A stretch of 64,000 bases of DNA from Nitrospirae bacterium CG02_land_8_20_14_3_00_41_53 (GTDB taxonomy: Bacteria > Nitrospirota > Thermodesulfovibrionia > Thermodesulfovibrionales > SM23-35): contig PEUB01000036.1 of assembly GCA_002780895.1 (NCBI GenBank), positions 5,547-69,546 on the forward strand, given 5' to 3'. The position numbers and the translations under genes were made by a program. The stretch's first letter is position 1; each line of letters starts with the position of its first letter. The notes under the pieces were generated by a model. That model was not told where the DNA came from. It made no database searches and worked only from the letters and a program-made list of their open reading frames with translations. This document shows, piece by piece, positions 2,782 to 61,368 of this stretch.

Positions 2782-2835
2782 ATGAAGGTTATAGCTTTTA
2801 ACGGGAGTCCGAGGGAAAAATCAGTCAATCCCTAA
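2782..2835 (+). pseudogene. 17-codon remnant of a flavodoxin-like/NADPH-dependent FMN reductase gene
   Basis: GAAGGAGG RBS followed by ATG at 2782. The product MKVIAFNGSPREKSVNP then hits a stop. MKVIAFNGSPR is the typical N-terminus of ~180-aa flavodoxin-fold reductases. The reading frame runs into the 3' end of the convergent hemW-like gene. Confidence 0.45.
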
Positions 2836-4248
2836 TCTCTCAAACAACTTCACTATAATTGTATTTGATATAACTATTCCTTTTCTTGTAAGCCTGAGAT
2901 AACCTCTCTCAATCTCGAGATAACCTTCATCAACTAATTCTCTGGATGCTTGGAGTATATTTATGTCATTCCTGCGGAAGCAGGAATCCAGAGAAGTAAA
3001 AAAGCTGGATTCCGCATCAAGTGCGGAATGACAACTCTGATTCCGCGAAACTGTGATGTCAGATAGTGTATTAATGTTTATTCCTTCTGTCTTTCTCAAC
3101 TTTAAAAAAATTATTTCCTTTAATGTATCTGTTGGTGTTAGCTTGATTGATTCTATCTCAGGGATTATCCCGCTGTTCAAATCTTGTATATATCTGTTAA
3201 TATCTTCGGTATTTTTTGAACGTATTCCATTGATAAAAGAGTGGGCTCCTGCACCAACTCCGATGTACTCTCCTCTATCCCAATAATTGAGATTATGAAC
3301 GCATCTGAATCCTGGTAATGCAAAATTGGATATCTCATAGTGTTCATAGCCACAGCTTGCAAAATAATCTATTGCGTGGTTGTACATTTCAATGATCAGT
3401 TCTTCATCAGGCAATTTAATTTTATTTGCAAATTCCCCCTTACCCCCCTTTGCTAAAGTGGGGAATTTACCATTAATAATGTTTCCATCCCCATCGATGG
3501 GGGAGGGGTAGGGTGGGGGTGATTTTTTGTATTCATTTTCACCCTCCCCCTTATCCCCTCCCATCAAGGGAGGGGAAGTATAAGATATTTCGCGTTTATG
3601 TTGCGGGACGGGTTTATTAGATTTCAACAGTTTGTAAAGCGGCGTATTTTCCTCGAGTGTAAGTTCATAAGTGGAAATATGAGTTGGTGACAATTCGACT
3701 GCCGTTGAGATAGAATTATGCCAAGATTCAATCGCCTGACCTGGAACTCCATACATTAAATCAACTGAAAAATTATTTATGCCTTCTTTTTTAATTATCT
3801 CAATTGATCTTGAAGCATCTTCTGATGAATGAATCCTTCCGAGTGTTTTAAGCTCGTCATTATTAAATGATTGTATTCCAATGCTAAGCCTGTTAACCCC
3901 GAGAGAAAGCACCGTATTTATTTTAGATTCATTTATTGTCCCGGGATTTGCCTCTACTGTTATTTCAATATCAGACGAGAAACTAAAATTATCTTTCAGG
4001 CATATAAATAGTTGTTTAAAACATTCATCAGGCAATAAAGATGGTGTGCCACCTCCTGTGTAAATTGTTTTCAATGTCGTATAGAAATCTTTCTTAAGGT
4101 AAAGTTCTTGGTAGAGAGCATCAATGTATGTCTTTGCGACTGACTCATCATATGGCATAGAAAAGAAATCACAATATGTACATTTTTGAATGCAGAATGG
4201 AATGTGAATATAGAGTAAATTAGGCATGAACAGCGGACTCTGTTCCAT
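2821..4248 (-). CDS. hemW: Radical SAM HemN/HemW-family protein (oxygen-independent coproporphyrinogen oxidase-like / heme chaperone) carrying repeat-derived insertions
   Basis: ORF 2821..4281 has YIHIPFCIQKCTYCDF (CxxxCxxC) and the GGGTPS motif. It is about 100 aa longer than usual for the family because of in-frame repeat blocks at 2965..3032 and 3431..3576. The start is uncertain: ATG at 4248 or 4227, and the 4281 ATG lies inside a repeat. Confidence 0.8.
   Translation of the reverse strand: MEQSPLFMPNLLYIHIPFCIQKCTYCDFFSMPYDESVAKTYIDALYQELYLKKDFYTTLKTIYTGGGTPSLLPDECFKQLFICLKDNFSFSSDIEITVEANPGTINESKINTVLSLGVNRLSIGIQSFNNDELKTLGRIHSSEDASRSIEIIKKEGINNFSVDLMYGVPGQAIESWHNSISTAVELSPTHISTYELTLEENTPLYKLLKSNKPVPQHKREISYTSPPLMGGDKGEGENEYKKSPPPYPSPIDGDGNIINGKFPTLAKGGKGEFANKIKLPDEELIIEMYNHAIDYFASCGYEHYEISNFALPGFRCVHNLNYWDRGEYIGVGAGAHSFINGIRSKNTEDINRYIQDLNSGIIPEIESIKLTPTDTLKEIIFLKLRKTEGININTLSDITVSRNQSCHSALDAESSFFTSLDSCFRRNDINILQASRELVDEGYLEIERGYLRLTRKGIVISNTIIVKLFERLGID
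2965..3032. repeat. GTCAT...ATGAC hairpin-pair element, in-frame inside the hemW-like gene
   Basis: The left arm gtcattcctgcggaagcaggaatccag and right arm ctggattccgcatcaagtgcggaatgac are terminal inverted repeats. Each arm contains its own 8-bp hairpin. The element encodes HSALDAESSFFTSLDSCFRRND. Confidence 0.85.
3431..3576. repeat. Three GC-rich nested palindromic elements, in-frame inside the hemW-like gene
   Basis: Copies at 3431..3467 (aattccccc-tta-cccccc-tttgctaaa-gtgggg-aatt), 3486..3521 (reverse orientation) and 3540..3576 (caccctccccc-tta-tcccctccc-atcaa-gggagggga). Together they encode a Pro/Gly-rich stretch, SPPLMGGDKGEG...PPPYPSPIDGDG...LAKGGKGEF. Confidence 0.85.
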
Positions 4249-4252
4249 GATT

Positions 4253-4352
4253 GCATGCTGAACTCTTATGTTTAGACACACCCCTTAATCCCCTCTTGAT
4301 AGAGGGGAAAGAAGAAGTAGACTCCCCTCTATCAAGAGGGGCAGGGGGTGTG
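4253..4352. repeat. Composite repeat: catgctgaac module plus two inverted GC-rich palindromic elements
   Basis: The two copies cacacccc-tta-atcccctc-ttgata-gagggga and ctcccctc-tatcaa-gaggggc-a-gggggtgtg face each other. The gcatgctgaac module is also seen at 6607. Confidence 0.85.
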
Positions 4353-6302: not shown

Positions 6303-6390
6303 GCCGGAGTGGCGGAATTGGTAGACGCAAGGGACTTAAAATCCCTCGTTCCAAAAGAGCGTGCCGGTTCAAATCCGGCCTCCGGCACCA
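6303..6390 (+). tRNA. tRNA-Leu (anticodon UAA), class II with long variable arm, CCA encoded
   Basis: Acceptor gccggag/ctccggc, anticodon stem aggga/tccct with loop cTTAAaa, T arm gccgg-ttcaaat-ccggc, and terminal ACCA. Confidence 0.93.
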
Positions 6391-6403
6391 GACAATAACT
6401 CGT

Positions 6404-6583
6404 TCATTTATTCTTGCCTGCTTTTTTCAGAAAAGAAATTATCAATAAGGTTGCCACGATAATAATTAGACCCTTGCCCATTAATGCCATCGCACTGAAT
6501 CCGATTTTTGTTATTGTTTTTCCGAAAACCAAAAGGAGAATGATCGCTCCTACTAACAAGGTAATTTTTTGATATTTATTCAT
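6404..6583 (-). CDS. Small hydrophobic protein (59 aa, two predicted TM helices), hypothetical
   Basis: Below the ORF-track cutoff. The product is MNKYQKITLLVGAIILLLVFGKTITKIGFSAMALMGKGLIIIVATLLIISFLKKAGKNK. There is no clear SD. Confidence 0.3.
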   Translation of the reverse strand: MNKYQKITLLVGAIILLLVFGKTITKIGFSAMALMGKGLIIIVATLLIISFLKKAGKNK

Positions 6584-6606
6584 GTCGAACTCTGTTCCAA
6601 TGATCT

Positions 6607-6665
6607 GTCATGCTGAACTTGTTTCAGCATCTCTTTTTCCTTCTATCAAGAGGGGATTAAGAAGG
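6607..6665. repeat. Composite repeat (gtcatgctgaac hairpin plus degenerate GC-rich palindrome)
   Basis: gtcatgctgaa-cttgt-ttcagcatc hairpin followed by ccttc-tatcaa-gaggggattaagaagg. It is homologous in layout to 4253..4352. Confidence 0.7.
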
Positions 6666-6674
6666 ATTATAATA

Positions 6675-7718
6675 TTAAAAAGCGAAATGCTGATAGCCTT
6701 CTGGTACCAAAGGTCTCTCTCTCCCTGAATTATCAATAATAACCCTTTCTGATTTTGTAATCTCTCCGATACAAAATGCCTTTGTTTTTTTATTAGGAAG
6801 TGCGGTAAACAACAGCTCATAATCTTCTCCACCTGATAAGGCTAATTTTACAGGTGAAATGCCAAGATGCGAGGCAGCTTGTTTGAGTTCAGGAGATACA
6901 GGAATATTTTCGATATATATCCTTGCACCAACCTTACTTTCGTTACAGAGCCGCGTTAAATCAATCAGAAGGCCATCGCTTATATCTATCATCGAGGTTG
7001 CATCCTTGAGAAATCTCTTTGGATCTCTTGCCTCAGGCATAAGATGTCTCCTGAGCAACGGTTCAACTACCTTCCAGGATAATTTCTCCCCAAAGAGCTT
7101 AGAGCATTGAGCATAGAGCATAGGATCTTTACTCTTAGCTCTTAGCTCTTTGCCCTTTGCTGATAGCAGAGGGACGTGTCTTTTTATCTTCTTCAGCAAT
7201 TCAAGGCCACAGGCTGAATCGCCGAGGTAGCCAGTTACATAGATTTTATCACCTATGTTTGCTCCAGAGCGTTTTATATGTTTTTTTACATATCCAATAA
7301 GTGTTGCTGATAATGATATGCCTATATTAGTAGCGGAAAGGTCACCCCCGATGAGGATAGTATCGTATAGAGTTAAAGCATCTTTAACCCCATCAAAAAA
7401 CCTATTGATAAATTTCGTATTCGTATTTTTGTTTACAGCGATATTCAGTAGAAGATAGAAAGGCTTTCCACCCATTGCATAGATATCACTTACATTAACT
7501 GATATTAACTTAAAGCCAAGCTGGTATGGGGTTGTAAAATGAAGGTTAAAATGAACCCCTTCGACCATCATGTCAGTTGTCACAAGGAGGTTTTTTCCTA
7601 ACGGCTTAACTACAGCAGCATCATCGCCTATACCGACGACAACATTTTTAGATTTCTTGTAAAAGCTTCTTCTTATCTGCTCCAAAAGGGATAGTTCGCC
7701 GATTTGAGAAAGCTTCAT
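6675..7718 (-). CDS. thiL: Thiamine-monophosphate kinase
   Basis: 347-aa ORF with AIR-synthase-like fold motifs (GDDAAVV, DMMVEGVHF, GGDLS). It contains a heptad-array insert at 7095..7164. Confidence 0.88.
   Translation of the reverse strand: MKLSQIGELSLLEQIRRSFYKKSKNVVVGIGDDAAVVKPLGKNLLVTTDMMVEGVHFNLHFTTPYQLGFKLISVNVSDIYAMGGKPFYLLLNIAVNKNTNTKFINRFFDGVKDALTLYDTILIGGDLSATNIGISLSATLIGYVKKHIKRSGANIGDKIYVTGYLGDSACGLELLKKIKRHVPLLSAKGKELRAKSKDPMLYAQCSKLFGEKLSWKVVEPLLRRHLMPEARDPKRFLKDATSMIDISDGLLIDLTRLCNESKVGARIYIENIPVSPELKQAASHLGISPVKLALSGGEDYELLFTALPNKKTKAFCIGEITKSERVIIDNSGRERPLVPEGYQHFAF
7095..7164. repeat. Heptad-phased array element (10 units of 7 nt) in-frame inside thiL
   Basis: gagctta gagcatt gagcata gagcata ggatctt tactctt agctctt agctctt tgccctt tgctgat. 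The two halves are roughly complementary. It encodes about KELRAKSKDPMLYAQCSKLF. Confidence 0.8.
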
Positions 7719-22100: not shown

Positions 22101-22125
22101 CAGGGATGGGTGGTACCCATCCCTG
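22101..22125 (-). terminator. Intrinsic terminator of the small lipoprotein gene
   Basis: 10-bp stem cagggatggg/cccatccctg, 13 nt after the stop. The minus-strand tail is aatttgctttt. Confidence 0.6.
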
Positions 22126-22138
22126 AAAATCTAATAAA

Positions 22139-22318
22139 CTACTTACCTGCTGGTGGGGCTGGTGCAGGTGCTGGTGCTGGTGCCTCTGGTGCTGGGGCTG
22201 GTGCTGTTGCCGGTGCAGGAGCCGGTGCCTCTGGCTTTGGTGTTTCAGCTGGCTTGCAGCCCACACTAAAAGCCGCAAGTAACAATAATGATAAGACTAA
22301 CGCTAAAAACCTCTTCAT
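22139..22318 (-). CDS. Small lipoprotein with Pro/Ala-rich tail (59 aa)
   Basis: Missed by the ORF track (under 60 aa). GGAGGTG RBS, then MKRFLALVLSLLLLAAFSVGC (signal peptide plus lipobox Cys), then KPAETPKPEAPAPAPATAPAPAPEAPAPAPAPAPPAGK. A terminator hairpin follows. Confidence 0.7.
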   Translation of the reverse strand: MKRFLALVLSLLLLAAFSVGCKPAETPKPEAPAPAPATAPAPAPEAPAPAPAPAPPAGK

Positions 22319-22656
22319 TAATTTTCACCTCCTTCCAAGAATACTTAATAAATATCTTAAAAAGATATTATAACACAAAAATCTTTGTCAACCTTAAATT
22401 TCAAGGAAATTTTATAACTGTGTGCTATAAAAATCAAGATGTTTCTGACAATAATTTATTCAAAAGAGATTTACATCACTATTACCTGCTGAAAATTAGT
22501 TAAGTTAAGGTATAATATTTATCTTAAGATGCCTCGAATTTTTTTAAAGTCCATCAAAAAAACTCTTTACCTGAAAATAAAATTTATGTTATTATGGTGA
22601 TATTTACCTTTACCCTGGAGTCCTGATGGGTAAGGGAAGGAAGGAGTCTTCAGGAA

Positions 22657-23439: not shown

Positions 23440-23443
23440 AAAA

Positions 23444-23527
23444 GAGCTAAGAGCTAAGAGCTAAGGCAAAAAACTCCATGCTCTTTGCTATTCGCTCTAT
23501 GCTAATTGCTCTTTGCTCTTTGCTAAA
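23444..23527. repeat. Heptad-phased array element (12 units of 7 nt) in the acsE-acsD spacer
   Basis: gagctaa x3, ggcaaaa, aactcca, tgctctt, tgctatt, cgctcta, tgctaat, tgctctt x2, tgctaaa. It belongs to the same family as 7095..7164, in opposite orientation. Confidence 0.85.
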
Positions 23528-24483: not shown

Positions 24484-24688
24484 ATAAATTCTAAATTCGA
24501 AATACTAAATTCTAAACAAATTCAAGATCCAGATGTTTAAAACTGACAACCATACTGTCATTCTGAGCGGTAGCGAAGAATCTCTTCTTATGTCAGACCC
24601 TTCGCCTTTGGCTCAGGGTGACACTAAAGTGTCATTTTGGGTATTTGATATTGTTTAGTATTTCGTGCTTAGGATTTTGAGAATTTCT
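24484..24688. repeat. Composite about 205-bp palindromic element between acsD and acsC
   Basis: Outer heptad-phased arms (24484..24525, ctaaatt cgaaata ctaaatt ctaaaca; complementary arm 24635..24688, ttgtttagtatttcg...tttgagaattt). They enclose a GTCAT-type element (24557..24622, inverted ends gtcattctgagc / gctcagggtgac) and a 6-bp hairpin at 24619..24634. Confidence 0.85.
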
Positions 24689-28282: not shown

Positions 28283-28403
28283 GTCATTAGTTACACCCCT
28301 CACCCTAACCCTCTTCCGCAAGGGGAGAGGGGACTTATTTTATTATCCCCTCCCTTGACGGGAGGGGATAGAGGGGAGGGTGAACTACTGATGACTAATG
28401 ACT
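28283..28403. repeat. Composite TIR-bounded element filling the acsB-cooS spacer
   Basis: 10-nt perfect terminal inverted repeats agtcattagt / actaatgact enclose two GC-rich palindromes. These are 28294..28334 (cacccctcaccc-taa-ccctcttcc-gcaa-ggggagagggg) and 28343..28382 (ttatcccctccc-ttgac-gggaggggata-gaggggagggtg). Confidence 0.85.
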
Positions 28404-33325: not shown

Positions 33326-35422
33326 ATGAAAAGACTCGATAGTATTGATGACCTTATTGTCCTCCGTAACCTTCTATTAAAAGAAGGGGTATTAGCCCCT
33401 GGTAAAAAAAGGATAAAGGTTTGTTGTGGGCTTCCCTGTAGCACCTTGGGTTCCCATGAAGTTACAAAGGAATTAGAGAATGAAATCTCTAAGAACAGTC
33501 TGGATATCGAAGTGATAAAAACAGGATGCCAGGGTCTTTGCCAGAGAGGACCCCTTATAAAGACCGAACCATATAATTATTTCTATCAGAAAGTCAGTCC
33601 AGAAAAAGTAGGAGAGATTATATCTAAGACCTTTTTAGCAGGACGACCTGTAAGAGAGTGTCTTTTCAGAGATTCTTTTCTTGAGCCACCCAAAGAAGTA
33701 ACTGAAGAGATTCCTTTTTATAAGAAGCAGCTGAAGGTTGCACTCAGGAATACTGGTTGTATAGACCCGCATAGTATATCTCACTATATTGTAACCGGCG
33801 GGTATATGGCTATTGAAAAGATATTTTCCTCCATGAGCCCAGAACAAGTACTTGAGGAGGTAACAAAGGCTAACCTCAGGGGCCGGGGTGGTGCAGGGTT
33901 CCCCGCAGGGAAAAAGTGGAAACATACCAAAAGTTCTCGTTGTGACATAAAATTTGTGATAGCCAATGGTGATGAAGGTGACCCTGGCGCTTTTATGGAC
34001 AGGTCTGTCATGGAAGGTGATCCTCACAGCCTGCTCGAGGGAATGCTTATATGTGCTTATGCAATTAGTGCACATTATGGGATTATTTATGTCCGTCACG
34101 AGTACCCTCTTGCCATTAAGAATTTGGGAATAGCTATTAATCAAGCGCAGGAGCTTGGGCTTATAGGTAAAAATATCCTCGGGACAGGATTTGATTTTAC
34201 AGTTCACATAAGGGAAGGCGCGGGTGCCTTTGTGTGCGGTGAATCTACTGCTCTTATTGCATCGGTAGAAGGAGAAAGGGGTATGCCGCGACCAAGACCT
34301 CCGCGACTTTCTGAAATTGGAGGAGGGGTTTGGGGATATCCAACTAATTTGAATAATGTAGAGACTTATGCTTGTATGCCTCAAATAATCGAGAAGGGAG
34401 CCGATTGGTTCCTGAATATAGGAACAGAAAATTCACCTGGTACAAAAGTATTTTCTCTTGCAGGAAAGGTTAAAAATACAGGGCTTATTGAAGTGCCTAT
34501 GGGGATAACCCTGAGGGAGATCATATTCGATATTGGGGGAGGAATATTAAATAATAAGAAATTCAAGGCAGTGCAGACAGGAGGGCCTTCGGGCGGGTGT
34601 ATCCCTGAGCAATATCTTGATCTGCCTGTAGATTATGATTCTCTTGCAAAGGTTGGCTCAATAATGGGTTCAGGTGGAATGGTCGTAATGGATGAGGACA
34701 ACTGTATGGTAGATGTTGCTAAGTTTTTCCTCTCCTTTACACAGGCTGAGTCATGCGGGAAATGTCCTCCATGCAGGATAGGTACATACCAGATGCTCCA
34801 AATCCTCGAAAAGATAACATTAGGCAATGGAGAGGAAGGAGATATAGGAAAACTTGAAAGGTTTGGGAAACTTGTAAAGGCAGGTTCCCTCTGTGGTCTT
34901 GGCCAGAATGCACCAAACCCTGTTCTTACGACCATCAAATATTTCCGTGAAGAATACGAAGAGCATATAAGAGATAAATATTGCAGGGCAAAGGTCTGCA
35001 CCGGACTCGGATTACTCTCAATAAACACTGAAATCTGCTACCAGTGTATGCGCTGCATGGATACATGTCCATTTGAGGCAATAAAAGAATCCAGGGAAGG
35101 TGGATTTTATATAGACCAGGTGCTCTGCCAGAGATGTAAGGCATGCTATATGGCATGTCCCTTAGGCGCTATAGAGATTAAAGAACAGCCCTTTACCTAT
35201 ATAGATACAGAGCTATGCTATCTCTGCGGCCGCTGTAAAGATGTATGCAGGATTAATGCAATAAAGGAAACTTCAACCGGATTCATGATAGATCGCTTTG
35301 TATGTAGGAAGTGCGGTGATTGTTACAATATATGCCCTATGGGAGCTGTGAGGTTTGAGAAAAGAACCCACCCCCCTGTGTCCCCCCTTAGTAAGGGGGG
35401 AATTAAAGAGGGGTGCCCTTAG
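33326..35422 (+). CDS. Second NuoF/HydB-like subunit (tandem paralog) with C-terminal polyferredoxin extension
   Basis: 698 aa with the same core motifs as the upstream paralog. Four CxxCxxCxxxCP-type clusters follow at the C-terminus. The last ~17 aa (HPPVSPLSKGGIKEGCP) are encoded by a GC-rich palindromic repeat. Confidence 0.88.
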   Translation: MKRLDSIDDLIVLRNLLLKEGVLAPGKKRIKVCCGLPCSTLGSHEVTKELENEISKNSLDIEVIKTGCQGLCQRGPLIKTEPYNYFYQKVSPEKVGEIISKTFLAGRPVRECLFRDSFLEPPKEVTEEIPFYKKQLKVALRNTGCIDPHSISHYIVTGGYMAIEKIFSSMSPEQVLEEVTKANLRGRGGAGFPAGKKWKHTKSSRCDIKFVIANGDEGDPGAFMDRSVMEGDPHSLLEGMLICAYAISAHYGIIYVRHEYPLAIKNLGIAINQAQELGLIGKNILGTGFDFTVHIREGAGAFVCGESTALIASVEGERGMPRPRPPRLSEIGGGVWGYPTNLNNVETYACMPQIIEKGADWFLNIGTENSPGTKVFSLAGKVKNTGLIEVPMGITLREIIFDIGGGILNNKKFKAVQTGGPSGGCIPEQYLDLPVDYDSLAKVGSIMGSGGMVVMDEDNCMVDVAKFFLSFTQAESCGKCPPCRIGTYQMLQILEKITLGNGEEGDIGKLERFGKLVKAGSLCGLGQNAPNPVLTTIKYFREEYEEHIRDKYCRAKVCTGLGLLSINTEICYQCMRCMDTCPFEAIKESREGGFYIDQVLCQRCKACYMACPLGAIEIKEQPFTYIDTELCYLCGRCKDVCRINAIKETSTGFMIDRFVCRKCGDCYNICPMGAVRFEKRTHPPVSPLSKGGIKEGCP
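35367..35415. repeat. GC-rich nested palindromic element forming the 3' end of the NuoF-2 gene
   Basis: cccacccccc-tgt-gtcccccc-ttagtaa-gggggg-aattaaa-gaggggtg. The stop codon is at 35420..35422. Confidence 0.8.
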
Positions 35423-38312: not shown

Positions 38313-38759
38313 TTACCTTATTGCCTTGAGCAGTTCTTTTTCTTTTCTCTCCATTTTATTCTTTCGATACCTGCTTTTTTCGTGGTCATAATCAATGAGA
38401 TGAAGGAGGCCGTGGATTAGGAGTTTTTTAAGTTCTTCATTAAAGGTATGTCCGTACTCTGATGCCTGTCTTTTAGCCTGATGAAGATTTATGATTATAT
38501 CACCCAAAACAAATTGCTGAGAGCTGAGAGCTGAGAGCTGAGAGCTATATTCAATTTGAGGGAATGAAAGCACATCCGTGGTTCTGTCCACGCCCCTGTA
38601 CTGACGGTTCAGTATCCTCATTCTCCTATCATTTACAAAAAGGATACTGAGTTCAGCCTTGTGGAGGCCGAGCAGGCGGAGTGCCTTCCTTAGAAGACTT
38701 TTTATTCTCTGCTGATTTACCTTTAAGAGTCTTTGGCAGTTCTTTATATAGACCTTCAT
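38313..38759 (-). CDS. ybeY: Endoribonuclease YbeY (rRNA maturation)
   Basis: HGLLHLIDYDH zinc motif. The start is placed at ATG 38759 (MKVYIKN). It contains heptad array 38514..38548. Confidence 0.9.
   Translation of the reverse strand: MKVYIKNCQRLLKVNQQRIKSLLRKALRLLGLHKAELSILFVNDRRMRILNRQYRGVDRTTDVLSFPQIEYSSQLSALSSQQFVLGDIIINLHQAKRQASEYGHTFNEELKKLLIHGLLHLIDYDHEKSRYRKNKMERKEKELLKAIR
38514..38548. repeat. Heptad tandem array, ttgctga (gagctga)x3 gagctat, inside ybeY
   Basis: Direct 7-nt tandem repeats encoding SSQLSALSSQQ in a variable loop of YbeY. Confidence 0.85.
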
Positions 38760-46778: not shown

Positions 46779-47470
46779 TTCAGCCCTCTTCGCCTCGGTC
46801 GTCTCAGGTGACTCGCCGAGGACAGCGAATTGGACGACTCCGATAATGCCCTTTTAAATCTTATATTATTTAAGTGGCATAAAGCGAGGGCTAGGGCATC
46901 TGCACTGTCGTTAGTGAGATTCGCGATTTGTGATTTGAGATTTAAGATTTTCATTACCATATCCTGAACCTGCCTTTTTTCGGCCATTCCATAACCGGTG
47001 ACAGCTTTTTTAACCTCGAGTGCACTGTATTCATAGACATTTAGATCCTCTGATGCAGCTGCAAGAAGTGCAATTCCCCTTGTCTGTCCGAGGCTTAATG
47101 CAGCCCTTACATTTTTTGCAAAAAACATACTTTCAACTGCCATTTCCTGAGGTCTATATTCCCTGATAATATCTATGAGGGAATCATAAAGTTTTTTTAA
47201 TCGCAGATGCAGCGGACTTTTTGGTGGTAAAGTAATTCTCCCTGAGGCGATGTAAGTGCAGTTTGGCTTGTTCGTTTGCAAGCTTGAAATCCTGCCAGCT
47301 TTTTGAGCATTGACTGTGGTTATAAGTCCATAACCGCACATGACACTGCCTGGATCGATACCGAGGATTCTAAATTCATCTACCTCATTGTAAGTCGATA
47401 CCGACCGATGCGAACTATTTTTTCCTTGGTACCTCAAAGAGTATCTCTTCCACCATCTGGCAGATGACAT
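46775..47470 (-). CDS. ruvC: Holliday junction resolvase RuvC (N-terminus uncertain)
   Basis: RILGIDPGS and DSADALALALCH catalytic motifs. The ORF has a 20-30 aa extension before the usual M-x-ILGIDPG start. Candidate starts are ATG 47470 or TTG 47434. It contains a heptad array at 46916..46950. Confidence 0.85.
   Translation of the reverse strand: MSSARWWKRYSLRYQGKNSSHRSVSTYNEVDEFRILGIDPGSVMCGYGLITTVNAQKAGRISSLQTNKPNCTYIASGRITLPPKSPLHLRLKKLYDSLIDIIREYRPQEMAVESMFFAKNVRAALSLGQTRGIALLAAASEDLNVYEYSALEVKKAVTGYGMAEKRQVQDMVMKILNLKSQIANLTNDSADALALALCHLNNIRFKRALSESSNSLSSASHLRRPRRRGLK
46916..46950. repeat. Heptad-phased array (gagattc gcgattt gtgattt gagattt aagattt) inside ruvC
   Basis: Five 7-nt units read directly from the sequence. 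They encode KILNLKSQIANL. Confidence 0.75.
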
Positions 47471-48652: not shown

Positions 48653-49627
48653 TTATCTATATGGGATAAAAACTATATTTCTTATTTCTGCAGGGAGGCT
48701 TTCTTTTGAAGGGCCAAGAGCAGTTACTCTGTAACTCCTCTTGGTTGATGGTTTATCTTTGTCAAGGAATGCAGGGGTCTGGGTATCTCCAATAAATATA
48801 AAACCCTCTTGCTTATTTATCTCTCTGTAAACCTTGTAACCAACTACCCATGTATCAGGAGATTCTTTCCAGCTGAGATATACATTCTCCTTTTTAACTA
48901 TTGCCTGAAGGCCTGAGGGAGAAGATGGCACAAATTCCAAAGGATTTATCTCAACCTCTCCTGAGGCAGGTCCTTCGTCCCTTATATCGGAACCTACAAG
49001 GCTTCTTATTGTATAGTAAACATGCCCTTTTATTGCAAAGTTATCCCTGAATGAGGTTTCCTTAATTGGTTCTTTATGCACAGGCATTAAACGGTATATG
49101 CCTTTCTCATTACTTTTATAGATGTTATAAAGGATTCTATCTCCCGCACTTTCCCAGTTCAATGTCAGAGAGTCATGTTCTACCTTAAATAGAATTTTTC
49201 CGGGAGGGGGAGGTACGGTTTCAGGATCAATTTGTATGATATTTGAGTCATTACTTATTACATTTTTCAGATTCTGGGAAACGATTTTATATTTGTATTT
49301 AGAGCCTATTTTAAAATCATTATCTATATAAGACCGCTTATTATTTTCAAGGGTGGCGATCTTTTCAAAATCCCCACCTGTTGATTTCATCAGGTAAAAT
49401 CCTTTTATTGCTGGTTCTTTATCTTTTGGAAATTCCCACAGGAGGATAATCTCTGATTCTCTGTGGACGGCCCTGAGCGCAGAAGGCGGATCCGGCTTTT
49501 CGTATGATTTGAGTGTAGGGTCACCTTTTTTGCCACATGAGGGGAGTAAACAGTAAACAGTAAATAGTAAACAAAAGATAAAAAGACCAAATCTGACTTC
49601 TGACTTCTGTATTCTGAGTTCTATCAT
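48653..49627 (-). CDS. Lipoprotein with beta-sandwich (Fn3-like) repeats, function unknown
   Basis: 324 aa. The N-terminus MIELRIQKSEVRFGLFIFCLLFTVYCLLPSCG (signal peptide plus lipobox Cys) is encoded entirely by heptad arrays. Confidence 0.7.
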   Translation of the reverse strand: MIELRIQKSEVRFGLFIFCLLFTVYCLLPSCGKKGDPTLKSYEKPDPPSALRAVHRESEIILLWEFPKDKEPAIKGFYLMKSTGGDFEKIATLENNKRSYIDNDFKIGSKYKYKIVSQNLKNVISNDSNIIQIDPETVPPPPGKILFKVEHDSLTLNWESAGDRILYNIYKSNEKGIYRLMPVHKEPIKETSFRDNFAIKGHVYYTIRSLVGSDIRDEGPASGEVEINPLEFVPSSPSGLQAIVKKENVYLSWKESPDTWVVGYKVYREINKQEGFIFIGDTQTPAFLDKDKPSTKRSYRVTALGPSKESLPAEIRNIVFIPYR

Positions 49628-52304: not shown

Positions 52305-52793
52305 CTATTCCCTTCTGGATAATAAAGAGAGAAAGCCCCAAACTCCCCCCAAAACAGCGCCTAAGGCAAGAGCAGAATGCCAGTCAAGAAGCGTTGTTAC
52401 ATTTCCTTCGATCTTATTAGCGATAACAAGGAATGCAGAAGTATTCTCTGACTTCACATCTCTTCCAGCCATAAAGCCAACAGCAGATCTGTTAACAATT
52501 GTATGTTCTCTTGAAATGGACACAGGAGAAAATGAAAAATTTATAGATACATTTTCAGCAGCAGTAACACCACTTATACTCTGGTTAAGACTTATATCAT
52601 TTCCTCTGAGGATAGCAGTTGCCCCCTGTGTAACCTCTACCTTTTCTCCGTCTATGCTGAGTGCTCCTACCTGCTGGAGTTCGATATGACCTCCTTCAAC
52701 AGCCCTGACAGTGCTCTGTTTTATATTGATAAACTCCCCCTCAATAAATTCGAGGTCTCTTTCTTCAAGTTCTCTTCCGTCTCTATGGGTCAT
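52305..52793 (-). CDS. Hypothetical tail-anchored protein with repetitive beta-strand-like core
   Basis: 162 aa with a C-terminal TM helix (ALALGAVLGGVWGFLSLL). It overlaps the valS stop by 11 nt and ends 1 nt before nadC. Confidence 0.5.
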   Translation of the reverse strand: MTHRDGRELEERDLEFIEGEFINIKQSTVRAVEGGHIELQQVGALSIDGEKVEVTQGATAILRGNDISLNQSISGVTAAENVSINFSFSPVSISREHTIVNRSAVGFMAGRDVKSENTSAFLVIANKIEGNVTTLLDWHSALALGAVLGGVWGFLSLLSRRE

Positions 52794-55611
52794 TTTTCAC
52801 CTCCACATCTTTAAGCATTTTAATACTTTCTAAAATCCTTTTCTTTATAATTATCAGTTCTTCATATTTTGCTTTTTCCTTATCAATAATCTCTCTGGGC
52901 GCCCTCTGGAGGAAGTCCTCATTAAAGAGTTTCCTGTTCAAAGACACGATAGACACATCTACCTTTGCCTCCTCTTTCTTAAGTCTATCGACTTCTGCAG
53001 TAATATTCAAGACCCCTTTAAGAGGAACATATATCTCCATAGAACTCTTAACAGAGGTTGCAGAGCACTCTGGCTTCTCAATGTTCATACCTATCTTAAT
53101 TTCGCCAGCCTTTGCAAGGTTTTTGAGATATTGTACGTTTTCCTTCAATATTTTCTCTGCCATTTGAGAAAATGTCTTTATTGACACATTGAGTTTAAGT
53201 GATGGTGATATGTTCAGCTCCCCTCTGATGGTTCTTATTCCCATTACAGCCTCTATGATATATGACATGTCTTCTTCAGCCTGGTAGTCTCTTGGTAAAG
53301 ACTTCGGATAATCTGAGACCATAATACTCTCCTTAATTGCTGAATGCTGAATTTTTATCGTCTGCCAAATCTCCTCTGTAACAAAGGGCATAAAAGGATG
53401 CAGCAGCCGTAAGGATGTATCGAGTGTATGCAGGAGACACCATCTGACGCCAGTTTGTGAGTTTAGGGTTCGGGGTTCGGAGTTTCCATCCCCTCCCTTG
53501 CCCTCCCCCCTCGAGAGGGAGGGTTGGGTGGGTGGGTTGATTTCGGATTTCGCCATCTCAAGATACCAGTCACAGAATTCATGCCATACGAACTGGTATA
53601 TACTACTTGCTGCGTCATTAAACCGATATTCTTCGAGTGCCCTGTTTATATCATCTGCTATAGCGGCAAGTCTGCTCAATATCCATTTACTTGCAAGATC
53701 ATGAGGCGTGTGAGTAATCCTCTCAACCCCTTCTTTTTCAAATCCCCCCTTACCCCCCTTTTCTAAAGGGGGGGTGGGGGGATTAGTATTCATCATAATG
53801 AATCTTGCTGCGTTCCAAAGCTTATTTACAAAATGCCTGTACCCTTCAACCCTTTTTTCCGAAAACTTAATATCGCGCCCCTGTGCAGTAAAAGCAGCAA
53901 GTGTAAACCTGAATGCATCTGTACCGTATCTGTCTATCATTATCAAAGGATCAACAACATTACCTTTTGATTTAGACATCTTCTGGCCTTTCAGATCCCT
54001 GACGAGTGCATGTATATAAACATCCCTGAAAGGCACGTCTCCCATGAATTTAAGTCCCATCATTATCATCCTTGCGACCCAGAAAAAGATTATATCGAAC
54101 CCTGTCACAAGAACGCTTGTAGGATAGAAGGTCTTAAGATCGTCAGTATTATCAGGCCAGCCAAGGGTAGAAAATGGCCATAGGGCAGACGAAAACCATG
54201 TATCGAGTACATCTTCATCCTGAATCAATTCTTCTGAGCTACAGTAAGGACATACTTGTGGTACATCTCTTGATACTATAACTCCATTTTGCATTTTGCA
54301 TTTTGCATTTTGCATTTTCTGACAGTACCATACAGGTATTCTGTGTCCCCACCATATCTGACGGGATATGCACCAGTCTTTTATATCTTCCATCCATGCA
54401 AAATATGTATTCTCCCATGTTTTAGGTATGATGTTAATTTTTCCCTCTTTAACTACCCTGATAGCATCTTTAGCAATGGACTGTACATTCACATACCACT
54501 GAGGTGTTGACAGCGGCTCGGTAATAGTCTTGCATCTGTAACAGTGGCCTACAGCATATTTGTACAACTCCTCTTTTTCTAAAAGATTAAGTACCTTCAA
54601 ATCTTTAATGACAAGTTTTCTGCACTCATATCTATCCAGACCTGCATATCTGTTTCCTGCATTTACTGTCATAAGACCATCGGCCCCGATCACGGTTATG
54701 AATTCTAAAGGTGGGATCTGTTTTTTTGCTATAGCCTCGTCATTAAAATCATGGGCTGGTGTTACCTTTACTGCGCCTGTACCAAAAGAAGGGTCTACTG
54801 CATGATCAGAAATAATAAGGATTTTTCTGTCAGTTAGAGGCAGGTTTATAGTTTTACCAATGAATTTTTGGTATCTGCTGTCTTCAGGGTTTACAGCCAC
54901 AGCAGTATCTCCGAGCATCGTCTCAGGCCTGGTAGTTGCTACAGTTATATACCCCCTCTTATTATCCCCCCCCCTTGCTAAGGGGGGGATAGGGGGGGTT
55001 AGTGGATACTTTATGTAAGTCAGCTTTCCTTCTAATTCCTCGTATTCTACCTCGAGGTCGGAAAGCGCGGTGTTACAGCGGGGGCACCAGTTTATAAGCC
55101 GGTTATCCCTGTATATCAGACCTTCCTCATAAAGTCTTACAAAAACCTCTCTTACAGCCTTTGAAAGCCCATCATCAAGTGTAAACCTTTCCCTTGACCA
55201 GTCACATGAAGCGCCGAGCCTTTTAAGCTGGTGGATTATCTTTCCACCGTATTCGGCCTTCCATTTCCATACACGCTCTATAAAGGCATTACGGCCGAGT
55301 TTATCCCTATCAAGTCCCGTAGATGCGAGCTGCTTTTCTACAACGTTCTGTGTAGCAATGCCTGCATGGTCAGTGCCTGGCAGCCATAGGACTTTATAAC
55401 CTGACATACGCTTCCAGCGAGAGAGTATATCCTGTAGTACCGTATTAAGGGCATGGCCCATGTGGAGAGAACCTGTAATATTCGGAGGGGGTATTACTAA
55501 AGAGTAAAAACTGCCTTTGAGGTCCGGGTCTGGCTTAAAATATCCTTTTGAGACCCAGTATTCATACCACCTTTCTTCTATACCTTGCGGATTGTAGCCT
55601 TTTTCTAAAAT
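52783..55611 (-). CDS. valS: Valyl-tRNA synthetase carrying five in-frame repeat insertions
   Basis: The ORF-track start (ATG 55461) is the Met of the HIGH motif (PPPNITGSLHMGHA). The frame continues upstream through ILEKGYNPQGIEERWYEYW to the stop at 55636..55638 with no ATG/GTG/TTG. The candidate start is ATT at 55611..55609, 5 nt after TAAGG. KMSKS motif and C-terminal coiled coil are present. Confidence 0.9.
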   Translation of the reverse strand: MLEKGYNPQGIEERWYEYWVSKGYFKPDPDLKGSFYSLVIPPPNITGSLHMGHALNTVLQDILSRWKRMSGYKVLWLPGTDHAGIATQNVVEKQLASTGLDRDKLGRNAFIERVWKWKAEYGGKIIHQLKRLGASCDWSRERFTLDDGLSKAVREVFVRLYEEGLIYRDNRLINWCPRCNTALSDLEVEYEELEGKLTYIKYPLTPPIPPLARGGDNKRGYITVATTRPETMLGDTAVAVNPEDSRYQKFIGKTINLPLTDRKILIISDHAVDPSFGTGAVKVTPAHDFNDEAIAKKQIPPLEFITVIGADGLMTVNAGNRYAGLDRYECRKLVIKDLKVLNLLEKEELYKYAVGHCYRCKTITEPLSTPQWYVNVQSIAKDAIRVVKEGKINIIPKTWENTYFAWMEDIKDWCISRQIWWGHRIPVWYCQKMQNAKCKMQNGVIVSRDVPQVCPYCSSEELIQDEDVLDTWFSSALWPFSTLGWPDNTDDLKTFYPTSVLVTGFDIIFFWVARMIMMGLKFMGDVPFRDVYIHALVRDLKGQKMSKSKGNVVDPLIMIDRYGTDAFRFTLAAFTAQGRDIKFSEKRVEGYRHFVNKLWNAARFIMMNTNPPTPPLEKGGKGGFEKEGVERITHTPHDLASKWILSRLAAIADDINRALEEYRFNDAASSIYQFVWHEFCDWYLEMAKSEINPPTQPSLSRGEGKGGDGNSEPRTLNSQTGVRWCLLHTLDTSLRLLHPFMPFVTEEIWQTIKIQHSAIKESIMVSDYPKSLPRDYQAEEDMSYIIEAVMGIRTIRGELNISPSLKLNVSIKTFSQMAEKILKENVQYLKNLAKAGEIKIGMNIEKPECSATSVKSSMEIYVPLKGVLNITAEVDRLKKEEAKVDVSIVSLNRKLFNEDFLQRAPREIIDKEKAKYEELIIIKKRILESIKMLKDVEVKNDP
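53452..53537. repeat. Heptad array (53452..53486) abutting a GC-rich nested palindrome (53487..53537), in-frame in valS
   Basis: agtttgt gagttta gggttcg gggttcg gagtttc, then catcccctccc-ttg-ccctcccccc-tcgag-agggaggg-ttg-ggtgggtggg. Encodes PPTQPSLSRGEGKGGDGNSEPRTLNSQTG. Confidence 0.85.
53741..53784. repeat. GC-rich nested palindrome in-frame in valS
   Basis: aatcccccc-tta-cccccc-ttttctaaa-gggggg-gt-gggggg-att. Encodes PPTPPLEKGGKGGF. Confidence 0.9.
54284..54318. repeat. Heptad tandem array, ccatttt then (gcatttt)x4, in-frame in valS
   Basis: Tandem 7-nt units. On the coding strand they read (aaaatgc)n and encode CQKMQNAKCKMQNG. Confidence 0.9.
54951..54999. repeat. GC-rich nested palindrome in-frame in valS
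   Basis: accccctc-ttat-tatccccccc-cttgctaag-ggggggata-gggggggt. Encodes TPPIPPLARGGDNKRG just before the ATTRPETMLGDTAVAV motif. Confidence 0.9.
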
Positions 55612-59487: not shown

Positions 59488-60429
59488 ATGTTTATGGATT
59501 TAAATACTATGAAACTGAGAAGGCCAACCATCATGTTGTTCTTATTATTTTTCCTTACTTTTATGAATACTCTTTATGCCGAACCCAATAAGATCCAGAC
59601 AAAAGAAGTCATAGTCATTTTTGAGGAGCCATTAGAAAACGTGGCTAAAGATGTAGTGAAGGTATACCCTGCTGTTAAAGCAGATCTCGTTGCAACCCTC
59701 GATTGGAAGGTTGATGTCAGACCAGATGTAATTCTGGTTAAAGATAAAAGCACCCTAATGAAAATGGTCGGAAGCGATATAATTATTGCATTTGCTATCC
59801 CTGACAGAAATCTTATTGTACTTGATACCTCAAGGATATATACCAGGCCCTTTACCCTTGAGGCAACACTCAAGCACGAGTTATGTCATATCCTTTTGCA
59901 CAGCAATATCAAAAACGATAGACTGCCCAGATGGCTTGACGAGGGGGTCTGCCAATGGGCAAGCGGAGGGATTGCAGAGCTTATAGCAGACGACGGGGAC
60001 AGTGCGATTACAAAAGCTACAATTTCTGACAGTACAATAAGCATAGGGGATCTCATAAGATTTCCTCGCGATGAAAAGTCTCTTCTTCTTGCGTATGAGG
60101 AAAGCAAAAGCATCGTGGAATATATCGTCAGTGAGTACGGCAAGCAAGGGATTTTACAGATACTTGAATATCTGAAAGAAGGGCATTCTATAGACGATTC
60201 TATCCAGAAAAGTCTTTCTGTCAGTACTTCCGAACTTGAGATTAAGTGGCTTGTATATCTAAAAAGAAAGCATACTTGGTTTTCATATTTAAGCTACAAC
60301 ATCTACACAATCCTCTTTTTCCTCGCCGCTGTGATTACTGTATATGGTTTTATAAGATTGCTGAAAAAGAAAAGGGCTTATGTTGATGAGGATGAAGAGA
60401 AGGGTAGGGGGGGTGGAAACACATCCTGA
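59488..60429 (+). CDS. Putative membrane-anchored zinc metallopeptidase (HExxH)
   Basis: N-terminal signal/TM, HELCHILLH motif and a C-terminal TM helix (IYTILFFLAAVITVYGFI). The start may be ATG 59509. Confidence 0.55.
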   Translation: MFMDLNTMKLRRPTIMLFLLFFLTFMNTLYAEPNKIQTKEVIVIFEEPLENVAKDVVKVYPAVKADLVATLDWKVDVRPDVILVKDKSTLMKMVGSDIIIAFAIPDRNLIVLDTSRIYTRPFTLEATLKHELCHILLHSNIKNDRLPRWLDEGVCQWASGGIAELIADDGDSAITKATISDSTISIGDLIRFPRDEKSLLLAYEESKSIVEYIVSEYGKQGILQILEYLKEGHSIDDSIQKSLSVSTSELEIKWLVYLKRKHTWFSYLSYNIYTILFFLAAVITVYGFIRLLKKKRAYVDEDEEKGRGGGNTS

Positions 60430-60490
60430 AAGTAATATAGAAAGTACTATAGTAAAAAAAGTAGTAAAATAGGGACACATCCCATTTTAC

Positions 60491-60519
60491 TTGACATCCA
60501 AGACTATAGTCGTTAAACT
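60491..60519 (+). promoter_or_regulatory. Candidate promoter giving a leaderless RAYT transcript
   Basis: TTGACA (60491..60496), 17 nt, then TAAACT (60514..60519). The ATG at 60525 is only 5 nt downstream and has no SD. Confidence 0.35.
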
Positions 60520-60524
60520 TCCCA

Positions 60525-61196
60525 ATGCCAAGGATCGGTAGAGCGGTTGCACCGGGCTATCCGCACCATGTCATTCAAAGAGGAAATAACAAAGAGCATG
60601 TCTTCTTTGAAAAAGAAGACCGAGAGCAGTATCTGTCATTGCTAAAGAAATATGCCTTCAAGTGGAACTCTCCGATTATGGCCTACTGCCTGATGAGCAA
60701 TCATGTCCATTTGCTGACAAAGCCGGAAACGAACGAATCGTTGTTTAAGATGATGCAGGGACTCACTCTCTGCTACACGCAACATATAAATAGGACGTAT
60801 GAGAGGACAGGCAGATTGTGGGAAAGTCGCTATCATTCATGCATTGTGGATCATGAGAAATACCTGTGGGCGGTTGCACGGTATATCGAGCAAAATCCGG
60901 TTAGGGCAAAGATGGTTGAGAGAGCCGAAGACTATGCCTATTCAAGTGCCCGATCTCATGTAAAGGGCAGCGAGGATCCTGTTCTGGGAGAAGACCTATT
61001 TAGCAATGACGTACGAAAGGACTATATACTCCTGCTGCGCTCTGATATGCCTGAAAAAGAAATTGAGAGGTTGCGCTATGCTACAAAAACGGGAAGACCT
61101 CTTGGCAGTGCGGAGTTTGTGGTCGAGATGGAAAAGAAGCTTGAAAGAAGGCTTTTGCAACGCCCGAAGGGAAGACCGAGGAAGAAATGCCGTTAA
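60525..61196 (+). CDS. REP-associated tyrosine transposase (RAYT; IS200-like Y1 transposase family)
   Basis: 223 aa with YHVIQRGN-type start (PHHVIQRGNNKEHVF), HUH motif MSNHVHLL and catalytic-Tyr region WAVARYIEQNPVRAKMV. The C-terminus is basic, ending GRPRKK. Confidence 0.85.
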   Translation: MPRIGRAVAPGYPHHVIQRGNNKEHVFFEKEDREQYLSLLKKYAFKWNSPIMAYCLMSNHVHLLTKPETNESLFKMMQGLTLCYTQHINRTYERTGRLWESRYHSCIVDHEKYLWAVARYIEQNPVRAKMVERAEDYAYSSARSHVKGSEDPVLGEDLFSNDVRKDYILLLRSDMPEKEIERLRYATKTGRPLGSAEFVVEMEKKLERRLLQRPKGRPRKKCR

Positions 61197-61335
61197 AATG
61201 GGATGTGTCCCTATTTTCAATTTTCTATTTTCACTATTTTCAAGAAAAAAAGCGATCCTGATCGGAAATAGAAAAATTCTATTCCCTATTTTTGGTTCTT
61301 CAGAGAATTGTGTGGAAGGTGCATACCCAAAAAAA

Positions 61336-61368
61336 CCCTCCCCTAACCCCTCCCATCGAGGGAGGGGG
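61336..61368. repeat. GC-rich nested palindrome (intergenic)
   Basis: ccctcccc-taa-cccctccc-atcga-gggaggggg. Confidence 0.8.

Follow-up and report, generated by a model that had tools for sequence, protein, structure and literature searches.

In-frame copies of dispersed palindromic repeats in the valyl-tRNA synthetase gene of a Thermodesulfovibrionales bacterium

How does a gene for an essential enzyme come to contain strong DNA palindromes and still be read through? We addressed this question in valS, which encodes valyl-tRNA synthetase (ValRS), on a 64,000-nt stretch of contig PEUB01000036.1 from Nitrospirae bacterium CG02_land_8_20_14_3_00_41_53 (order Thermodesulfovibrionales). This whole stretch, with a G+C content of about 41%, is referred to as the window. 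An initial annotation had described three GC-rich nested palindromes and two heptad arrays within the unbroken valS frame. All five were found where they had been placed, in a single minus-strand frame that is free of stops from 55611 to the stop at 52783, and the peptides proposed for the palindromes (PPIPPLARGGDNKRG, PPTPPLEKGGKGGFEKEG and PSLSRGEGKGGDG) are all present in the ValRS translation. The palindromes belong to two families, which we named A and B and which form a real and new set of in-frame palindromic repeats in valS and elsewhere. With a probability of about 0.75, A and B are mobile palindromes that reside in valS as tolerated and translated selfish DNA, resembling the Rickettsia palindromic elements (RPEs).

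Family A is about 44-45 nt long and has the structure AATC-C6-TTA-C6-TTTnCTAAAG-G6-N3-G6-GATT; written with its flanks, it reads (TC)AAATC-C5/6-TTA-C6-TTTnCTAAAG-G5/6-N3-G6-ATT(A). Complete copies are either 44 or 45 nt, have terminal inverted repeats (AATCCCCCC...GGGGGGATT), and are bordered by a conserved 5' flank, (TC)AAATC, and by an A after the 3' GATT. Family B is about 50 nt long and consists of a C-rich arm, CCCTCCC, CTCGAG, GGGAGGG and a G-rich arm, usually with a tail of AACTCCG heptads. valS has two A copies (sites 1 and 2) and one B copy (site 3). The palindrome at site 2 has 20-nt arms that are 80% complementary. Against dinucleotide shuffles that kept the C and G runs, RNA folding of sites 2, 1 and 3 gave z-scores of -2.7, -2.2 and -2.3, respectively, and perfect GC-rich hairpins numbered 21 raw hits in the window compared with 1-6 in 20 shuffles.

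Family A is widely dispersed. An exact search with its 23-nt core, CCCCCTTACCCCCCTTTNCTAAAG, hit at least 119 metagenome contigs, and our census retrieved 80 loci (G+C 0.36-0.61) with 78 unique copies. A copy was scored as coding if it lay in an open reading frame (ORF) of at least 200 amino acids with at least 20 on each side, and as assessable if at least 700 nt extended on both sides of it. By these definitions, 34 of the 78 unique copies (44%) were in long ORFs, as were 21 of the 38 assessable copies (55%), compared with 69% of random 44-nt windows from the same loci. Of 30 host ORFs searched with Pfam, 28 contained domains of housekeeping enzymes: CarA, CarB (with two oppositely oriented copies), TatD-radical SAM, polyprenyl synthase, TsaD, TonB, a GltD-like protein, ribonucleotide reductase (RNR), CobQ, DNA methylase, M16 peptidase, LarC, RsmE, ferrochelatase, MnmA, a NuoG-like protein, HypF and others. 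The element mostly lies within or between the matched domains.

The reading frame of the host sets a limit on these copies. The initial annotation had stated that C-runs and G-runs are read as Pro and Gly in any frame; this is half right, because the loop and the TTA spacer of A carry TAA or TAG, which close three of the six combinations of orientation and frame and leave three open. In the same orientation as the gene, the consensus reads NPPLPPFSKGGxGG or IPPYPPFLKGGxG, and in the opposite orientation it has one open reading, NPPIPPLEKGGKGG. Coding copies use exactly these three open frames (19, 2 and 13 copies).

Orthologs without the palindrome segments, which the initial annotation had named as the test of insertion, were found both in an alignment of 34 ValRS orthologs (68-91% identity) and in DNA comparisons. 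Site 1 is filled in 14 of the 34 sequences and empty in the rest (YPLSDGSGRYITVA); loci L083, L214, L070 and others have SDGSG there and no A palindrome. Site 2 is hypervariable, with A in some lineages and, elsewhere, heptad or octamer arrays of lineage-specific units or short linkers. Within this alignment, B occurs at site 3 in the window and in proteins P0002 and P0006 only. In P0003, P0004 and P0005, which are 89-91% identical, site 3 is empty and the same B element stands about 40 residues downstream, and P0006 has B at both places. DNA comparison gave the same picture. Relative to L081, which is about 90% identical to the window in DNA, site 3 is a 66-nt insertion; L081 instead carries a 114-nt insertion that the window lacks, located about 130 nt downstream of site 3 and containing the same B element, and valS of L084 carries B at both positions. 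The AACTCCG tail accompanies B at this different site in L081 and L084 as well.

The elements also vary internally. In L082, site 3 (about 6560-6660) holds two small hairpins, TGCCCGACGGATGGCAGGCGGG and TCGGAATCGACTCGTACCGA, nested in B on either side of CTCGAG and amounting to 15 extra in-frame residues. At site 1, the loop is TTAGCAA in the window and its reverse complement, TTGCTAA, in L081; the outer right arm is missing in L084 and L213, and L003 has the outer arms alone. All length variants among the orthologs differ by multiples of three, and no better evidence for translation of the segments is available; judged by this frame conservation, they probably are translated. The predicted tryptic peptides crossing the junctions of the inserts include LTYIKYPLTPPIPPLAR, FIMMNTNPPTPPLEK and SEINPPTQPSLSR.

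These comparisons also bear on whether GC-rich hairpins were mis-assembled into valS or arose from sequencing errors, which we regard as hardly credible. The data are metagenome-assembled, and 40 of the 78 A copies lie within 700 nt of a contig end, as such an artefact might produce. However, contigs from two independent ENA assemblies encode the identical ValRS protein, which belongs to a cluster of 21 member sequences. Because the same gene was assembled independently in two ENA data sets, its inserts are not an assembly artefact. Moreover, diverged homologous inserts are found in many relatives from JGI, NCBI and ENA, and the frame is always preserved.

We then located the inserts in the protein. 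The ValRS is a full-length class Ia enzyme with catalytic motifs (HIGH, as PPPNITGSLHMGHA, and KMSKS), editing and anticodon-binding domains and a C-terminal coiled coil. It matches Thermus thermophilus ValRS (1GAX) over its full length (residues 7-859, E=6.5e-217), its Pfam domains are tRNA-synt_1 (15-584), Anticodon_1 (642-810) and Val_tRNA-synt_C (870-934), and the closest proteins are labelled as Thermodesulfovibrionales or Nitrospirota metagenome-assembled genomes (MAGs). Mapping onto a solved ValRS, as the initial annotation had suggested, placed every insertion point at a gap in the 1GAX alignment, in an inter-domain linker or in predicted coil. Site 1 falls in the gap between V204/E205 and G207/G208, just upstream of the stretch aligned to the isolated T. 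thermophilus editing-domain chains 1WKA/1WK9 (from query residue 214), and was predicted as coil between strands E188-203 and E221-226 in a low-confidence part of the AlphaFold model. Site 2 corresponds to a gap at about R593-A598, in the linker joining the catalytic and anticodon-binding Pfam domains. Site 3 lies in the K654-E670 loop, within an Anticodon_1 match about 21 residues longer than the profile, and was predicted as coil separating helices H664-691 and H716-737, where the C-terminal part of the model is otherwise confident. All three inserts, site 2 included, were modelled as coil between secondary-structure elements. Only the C-terminal domain of the model is usable (TMt 0.83 versus 4XKZ), and confidence drops markedly there at the inserts alone. 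The core of the initial annotation, namely that dispersed palindromes are inserted in frame in an essential gene, is borne out by dispersal, presence or absence among relatives, in-frame persistence and loop location.

Aminoacyl-tRNA synthetases frequently contain idiosyncratic insertions, and the three segments might accordingly be regarded as lineage-specific functional modules of ValRS in which DNA palindromy is incidental. The conserved heptad-encoded C-x7-C segment described below, which supplies a probable zinc ligand, would be in keeping with such modules. However, the same DNA recurs at over 100 unrelated loci and in no fewer than 20 further protein families, the inserts are missing from close orthologs, and their peptides are the plain translation of C-runs and G-runs. 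For the three palindromes, these observations largely refute the functional-module explanation, which we consider very improbable.

The heptad arrays behave differently from the palindromes. Perfect repeats of period 7 occur six times in the 64-kb window, compared with 13 times in 1.29 Mb of distant valS loci, and every other period from 4 to 12 occurs zero or one time in the window. The initial annotation had grouped both valS arrays with the in-frame insertions. The array at 54285-54318 is indeed in frame, but it is clade-wide, old and not RPE-like. Throughout the clade, its segment has C-x7-C in place of the usual ValRS zinc-knuckle CxxCG, and an in-frame TGC of the array encodes the second Cys (Cys438), which is at least 90% conserved. 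Cys438 is a probable zinc ligand in a C-x7-C...CxxC knuckle. Identity at lag 7 in this region is 0.88 in the window, L213 and L214, 0.69-0.78 in L081, L082 and L084, and at background in L083, L001 and L070. The DNA of the array is identical in the diverged L213 and L214, and the array is therefore old; either selection or homogenisation has kept it perfect.

The other valS arrays turn over. Site 2 is occupied by (GCTCCAA)3 and then (CTTCTCA)4 in L213, by (CTTTCAA)4 in L214 and by octamers in L081; since these units differ, different arrays arise at the same permissive linker. The tail of B at 53453-53485 consists of five imperfect [AG]AAC[TC]C[CTA] units, of which Tandem Repeats Finder (TRF) detected 2.7 copies of period 7 (91%) at 53466-53484. 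These heptad arrays behave as locally generated simple repeats at permissive loops, a phenomenon separate from the palindromes. The two meet repeatedly: a strong lag-7 signal adjoins 5 of 74 A copies, compared with 0.8% of control positions, and at valS sites 3 and 4 heptads surround B. Elsewhere in the window, in-frame heptads were observed in ORFs for ThiL, YbeY, RuvC and a lipoprotein (7094-7161, 38516-38546, 46915-46950 and 49545-49622). ThiL has two adjacent arrays of roughly inverted units, YbeY has a perfect GCTGAGA x4.4, and in the lipoprotein ORF the heptads occupy the signal-peptide/lipobox region. An intergenic array at 23442-23524 combines (AAGAGCT)3.4 with (TGCTCTT)6.6, whose units are reverse-complementary and could pair as a long imperfect hairpin.

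We propose the following course of events. Two dispersed families of nested palindromes, A and B, would have colonised a Thermodesulfovibrionales lineage, and three copies, two of A and one of B, would have landed in valS. A copy could persist if its orientation and frame were open, giving flexible Pro-Pro-x-Pro-Pro-(L/F)-x-K-Gly-Gly-x-Gly-Gly loops, if the net change in length were a multiple of three, and if the site were a loop or linker (in valS, a loop between predicted strands just ahead of the editing-domain alignment, the linker that leads to the anticodon-binding domain, and a loop between two helices of that domain). Heptads would turn over locally at the same permissive loops, palindromes often becoming embedded in them, and one old heptad array may have become part of the probable zinc knuckle. 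We interpret the palindromes as tolerated, translated selfish DNA like RPEs because their frames are open, their lengths fit a multiple of three and their sites are loops; we infer that the copies are neutral, that is, tolerated rather than useful.

A number of points weigh against this interpretation. The A copies were collected by exact match to 23 nt, so that conservation of the core is given by construction. Several coding copies are orthologous (three in TatD, two in RNR and two in TonB) and hence not independent. The AlphaFold2 model, built from the 34-sequence alignment, is poor (mean predicted local distance difference test score, pLDDT, 56; template modelling, TM, score 0.25 versus 1GAX), so that loops in the N-terminal half were assigned from the sequence alignment with 1GAX. 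At the valS loci and A copies, hypervariability of the host loops themselves prevented the definition of any target-site duplication or clean empty site: A is preceded by (TC)AA and followed by A with no consistent duplication, and a TCCGAA repeat at the junction of site 3 is ambiguous, its target being itself a heptad array. Nor is any mobilising enzyme linked to the families; the transposase gene of the window, described below, has repeats of its own, a score below the cut-off of its NCBIfam reference family and no enrichment near A copies.

Three further points on this side could mean selection on the nucleic acid. Complete A copies are commoner in coding (25 of 34) than in non-coding contexts (15 of 44); cores are near-identical across contigs with G+C of 0.36-0.72 (0.36-0.61 for A and 0.41-0.72 for B); and 35 nt of perfect heptad array are identical in L213 and L214 at 79% amino-acid identity, when gene-wide the codons for identical residues agree between the window and these two loci in only about 60% of cases. 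The palindromes, and perhaps the heptads, might then be domesticated and maintained as mRNA hairpins or G-quadruplexes that would pace translation or stabilise the transcript, or as DNA structures or recombination sites. Hairpins of -32 to -34 kcal/mol in an essential mRNA would suit such a function, as would the G-rich half of B (G6-A-G3-CAA-G3-A-G4), which fits a four-tract quadruplex motif, and the near-random coding occupancy of A. Against this, relatives that are 90% identical differ in which palindromes they have, some copies are decayed or halved, orientation flips at one site, the elements have no consistent position relative to gene starts, gene ends or domain borders, and neither family has an Rfam match. 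Taken together, these observations make a nucleic-acid function quite improbable.

The window contains a gene for a Y1 (HUH) transposase resembling the tyrosine transposases associated with repetitive extragenic palindromes (REPs), known as RAYTs. Its score against NF047646 (73.4 bits) is below the cut-off of 80, and it is bounded by perfect 23-nt inverted repeats (AAAATAGGGACACATCCCATTTT and its complement), of which no other copy was found in the window or the compared loci. The gene is 5.5 kb from valS, and a B-like copy lies about 120 nt downstream of it. It is strain-specific, being absent from the syntenic site of L081, where a TIR-domain/PIN island stands. Homologs were found near 2 of the 80 A loci. 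Given its own unrelated repeats, its absence in L081 and this low frequency, we treat the gene as an example of a candidate class of mobilising enzyme and not as the mobiliser; when it was considered as cognate mobiliser of A and B, no sequence link to them and no enrichment near A copies were found. Homologs in L121 and L150 have similar ends (GGGGACAC...GTGTCCCC). A G-run at 60403-60420 was considered as half of a B element flanking the transposase and rejected, since in L081 it is conserved coding sequence of a peptidase C-terminus.

No parent insertion sequence of A or B was seen in the 2.1 Mb examined. The most plausible mechanism of copying, which we put forward tentatively, is that the single-strand hairpin may be recognised by an HUH/Y1-type transposase acting in trans. 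HUH-type insertion beside a short target would account for a conserved 5' flank without duplication, and template switching or patch repair would account for it equally. Spread by homology-driven patch repair, gene conversion or template switching, with heptads serving as microhomology landing pads, could explain why neither target-site duplication nor cognate transposase was found, why palindromes sit in heptad arrays and B travels with its AACTCCG tail, how a loop was inverted in situ, how an inner hairpin can be present or absent inside constant outer arms, and how B was duplicated within one gene at a distance of about 130 nt. The (TC)AAATC flank and the fixed length of 44/45 nt across unrelated hosts, however, resemble a defined element pasted by an enzyme, and we consider spread by repair unlikely. 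It would also be a speculative step, and an unlikely one, to join A, B and the heptads into one transposase-orphan mobile system that crosses phyla, uses heptads as landing pads and enters coding loops at a near-random rate. In such a system, heptads might act as frame-restoring buffers that let elements of any length survive, because 7 equals 1 modulo 3; at site 3, the alignment allows the 66 nt to be parsed as an element of 59 nt with one heptad added.

Further copies are present in the window (Table 1). The initial annotation had described the elements as also intergenic in this window, which holds for family B and the heptads but not for family A, whose copies here are all in ORFs; intergenic A copies were seen only in metagenome contigs. 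In the HemW-like gene, the insert of three palindromes is about 146 nt, or roughly 50 residues (…SPPLMGGDKGEGENEYKKSPPPYPSPIDGDGNIINGKFPTLAKGGKGEF…), splits the TIGR00539 match into two stretches, and folds at -67 kcal/mol (z-score -2.7). In the NuoF-like gene, the A copy (35367-35422) was observed to supply the last ~15 codons and the stop context and to overlap the start of the next ORF (35413).

Table 1. Positions of valS, the repeat elements and the transposase gene in the window
Feature	Coordinates	Strand	Remarks
valS (valine--tRNA ligase)	52783..55611	minus	942 codons; ATT start overlapping TAG of upstream response-regulator gene
Family A nested palindrome, valS site 1, peptide TPPIPPLARGGDNKRG	54951..54999	minus	RNA hairpin -33.8 kcal/mol
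Family A nested palindrome, valS site 2, peptide NPPTPPLEKGGKGGF	53741..53784	minus	Inverted repeat; hairpin -32.8 kcal/mol; holds 23-nt core
Family B nested palindrome, valS site 3, peptide NPPTQPSLSRGEGKGGDG	53486..53536	minus	Hairpin -32.3 kcal/mol; 66-nt insertion relative to L081
Perfect heptad array (AAAATGC)x4.9 on coding strand, KMQNAKCKMQN	54285..54318	minus	TRF score 68, 100% matches
Imperfect heptad tail of B palindrome, AACTCCG-like units, NSEPRTLNSQT	53453..53485	minus	Weak by TRF
Small heptad array ATTCAGC x2, KIQHSAI, valS site 4	53338..53352	minus	L081, L084 and others carry B palindrome and heptads here
Three tandem palindromes: A 3433-68, B-like 3485-3521 and 3540-78 in opposite orientation	3433..3578	minus	In frame in HemW-like radical SAM gene 2821-4281
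Family A copy as C-terminal tail (PPVSPLSKGGIKEGCP, then stop) of NuoF-like Fe-S flavoprotein gene	35367..35415	plus	
Family B-like palindrome, intergenic	28348..28382		Identical core in L084
Family B-like palindrome, intergenic between Y1 transposase gene and argS	61336..61368		
Short family B hairpin, intergenic	4324-41		
Intergenic heptads	23442-23524, 24485-24516, 61213-43		
RAYT-like Y1 (HUH) transposase gene 60525-61196 within inverted-repeat bounds	60466..61217	plus	PF01797 E=1.3e-17

Families A and B, or look-alikes of them, extend well beyond Nitrospirota. IMG/VR contained no family A, and family B was found there in six viral contigs. In these contigs (L207-L212, classed as viral, G+C 0.48-0.72), the B core and both flanking arms are nearly identical. 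A Desulfobacteraceae MAG (L018) has an A-like sequence, AATC-C7-CGG-C6-TTTTCAAA-G5-ATCGA-G5-ATTT, at both contig ends. Rfam yielded no family for A or B, the only signals being sub-threshold, miRNA-like hairpin noise. Neither the A nor the B consensus gave a BLAST match among PLSDB plasmids, possibly because of the low-complexity filter, and a doubled B-element peptide retrieved 22 candidates, none significant, from a collection of 5.8 billion proteins in which low-complexity words are evidently not indexed. Literature searches on the peptide and DNA motifs and on Thermodesulfovibrio repeats found nothing relevant.

Among known systems, the closest comparison is with RPEs, which are dispersed palindromic elements of about 105-146 nt (PMC3184786) found between genes and, in frame, within genes including housekeeping genes, where the added surface peptide is tolerated (Ogata et al. 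2000; PMC1458961). A and B are likewise dispersed, have in-frame copies in protein genes and are lineage-specific in comparison with orthologs. They are set apart by length (44-50 nt, with C6/G6 runs) and by host, Nitrospirota instead of the alphaproteobacterial genus Rickettsia, and kinship in sequence is not expected. The share of coding copies also differs: 44% of all A copies and 55% of the assessable ones, compared with 53 of 526 RPEs (~10%) in R. bellii (PMC1458961).

A and B share with the small dispersed repeats (SDRs) of cyanobacteria the form of small hairpins beside or in heptads, and the nested insertion in L082 adds to the likeness. SDR1-8 are reportedly hairpin repeats of 21-27 nt that occur in tandem heptamer arrays and in nested insertions, have no known transposase and are confined to a cyanobacterial subgroup; the short tandemly repeated repetitive (STRR) heptanucleotide arrays are said to comprise many unit sequences. 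To our knowledge, frequent in-frame residence in housekeeping genes is not a hallmark of SDRs. By this description, A and B are distinguished by their larger size, by another host phylum and presumably by sequence.

REPs and their hairpin-forming doublets (REPINs) constitute, with RAYTs, a further class of system (Bertels & Rainey 2011, PMC3116915). Some intragenic REPs of the GTAG/CGTC-tagged superfamilies lie in ORFs and encode 20-30 amino acids when dimeric (Di Nocera et al. 2013, PMC3733652). A and B are similarly short, GC-rich palindromes in many copies, slightly longer than 20-40 nt because they are nested; the HemW-like insert contains two B-like units in inverted orientation, as in a REPIN, and a RAYT-like gene is present in the window. 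By contrast with REPs, neither consensus contains a GTAG/CGTC tag or its complement, and A is not predominantly extragenic (34/78 copies, and 21/38 assessable copies, in long ORFs versus 69% for random placement). The Y1 gene is flanked by its own 23-nt repeats and not by A or B, which is the 'TIRYT' situation of PMC3733652.

MITEs, the miniature transposable elements with inverted repeats, can fuse in frame to genes (reviews PMC3184786, PMC2229807, PMC10969869). Like them, A has terminal inverted repeats, forms a strong hairpin, is non-autonomous and is fused to ORFs, including the 3' extension that forms the NuoF-like tail. A and B are, however, much shorter, and no target-site duplication or parent insertion sequence was seen. 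In mitochondrial genes of Nematomorpha, inverted repeats of up to 284 bp have both arms coding (PMC6649704). A and B are also embedded and read within essential protein genes, but the nematomorph palindromes are long and mitochondrial and do not form a dispersed family of short elements. In-frame small repeats are already known; the A and B families are new, and the literature searched held no account of the phenomenon in Thermodesulfovibrionales. Unusual features of A and B are the near-random coding share, the near-identical B cores across differing G+C together with the Desulfobacteraceae A-like copy, and the coupling to heptads.

In-frame selfish palindromes are textbook knowledge for Rickettsia and have been regarded as an oddity of reduced genomes. 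Here, the same phenomenon appears in a free-living anaerobic lineage, with much smaller elements and a share in housekeeping genes close to that of random placement. For annotation, this means that MAG gene calls, domain models and phylogenomic alignments will hold Pro/Gly-rich pseudo-insertions and truncated starts. For protein evolution, the copies are a natural loop-insertion experiment that marks permissive sites in ValRS, CarB, RNR, TsaD, HypF and others. As mobile elements, families of 44-50 nt with heptamer arrays parallel the cyanobacterial SDR/STRR system.

The start of valS is itself uncommon. The sequence ATTTTAG at 55605-55611 (minus strand) joins the ATT start to the stop of the overlapping response-regulator gene, and the homologous ATT is the annotated valS start of three relatives in NCBI. 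The automated ORF list begins valS at an internal ATG (55461) because the true start is ATT. No ATG, GTG or TTG serves as start; the conserved ATT is also found in L083 (9085), L213 (3668) and L214 (4651), preceded by a conserved GAGAGGATAAGG, and this sequence is kept even in L213, which has no response-regulator gene called upstream. Gene callers mostly truncate ValRS at MGHALN or MSGYK, with a coverage of 92-95% among relatives. An ATT start suggests initiation sensitive to IF3, as in infC.

Lastly, GC skew in the window is negative at 1-22 kb and at roughly 40-60 kb, positive at 22-38 kb and about zero at 38-42 kb; it follows gene strand, not a replication origin. A TGGTGC x12 repeat (period 6/27) at 22148-22228 opens a short ORF (22110-22373) at the point where gene orientation and GC skew switch, and one tRNA gene lies at 6303-6387.

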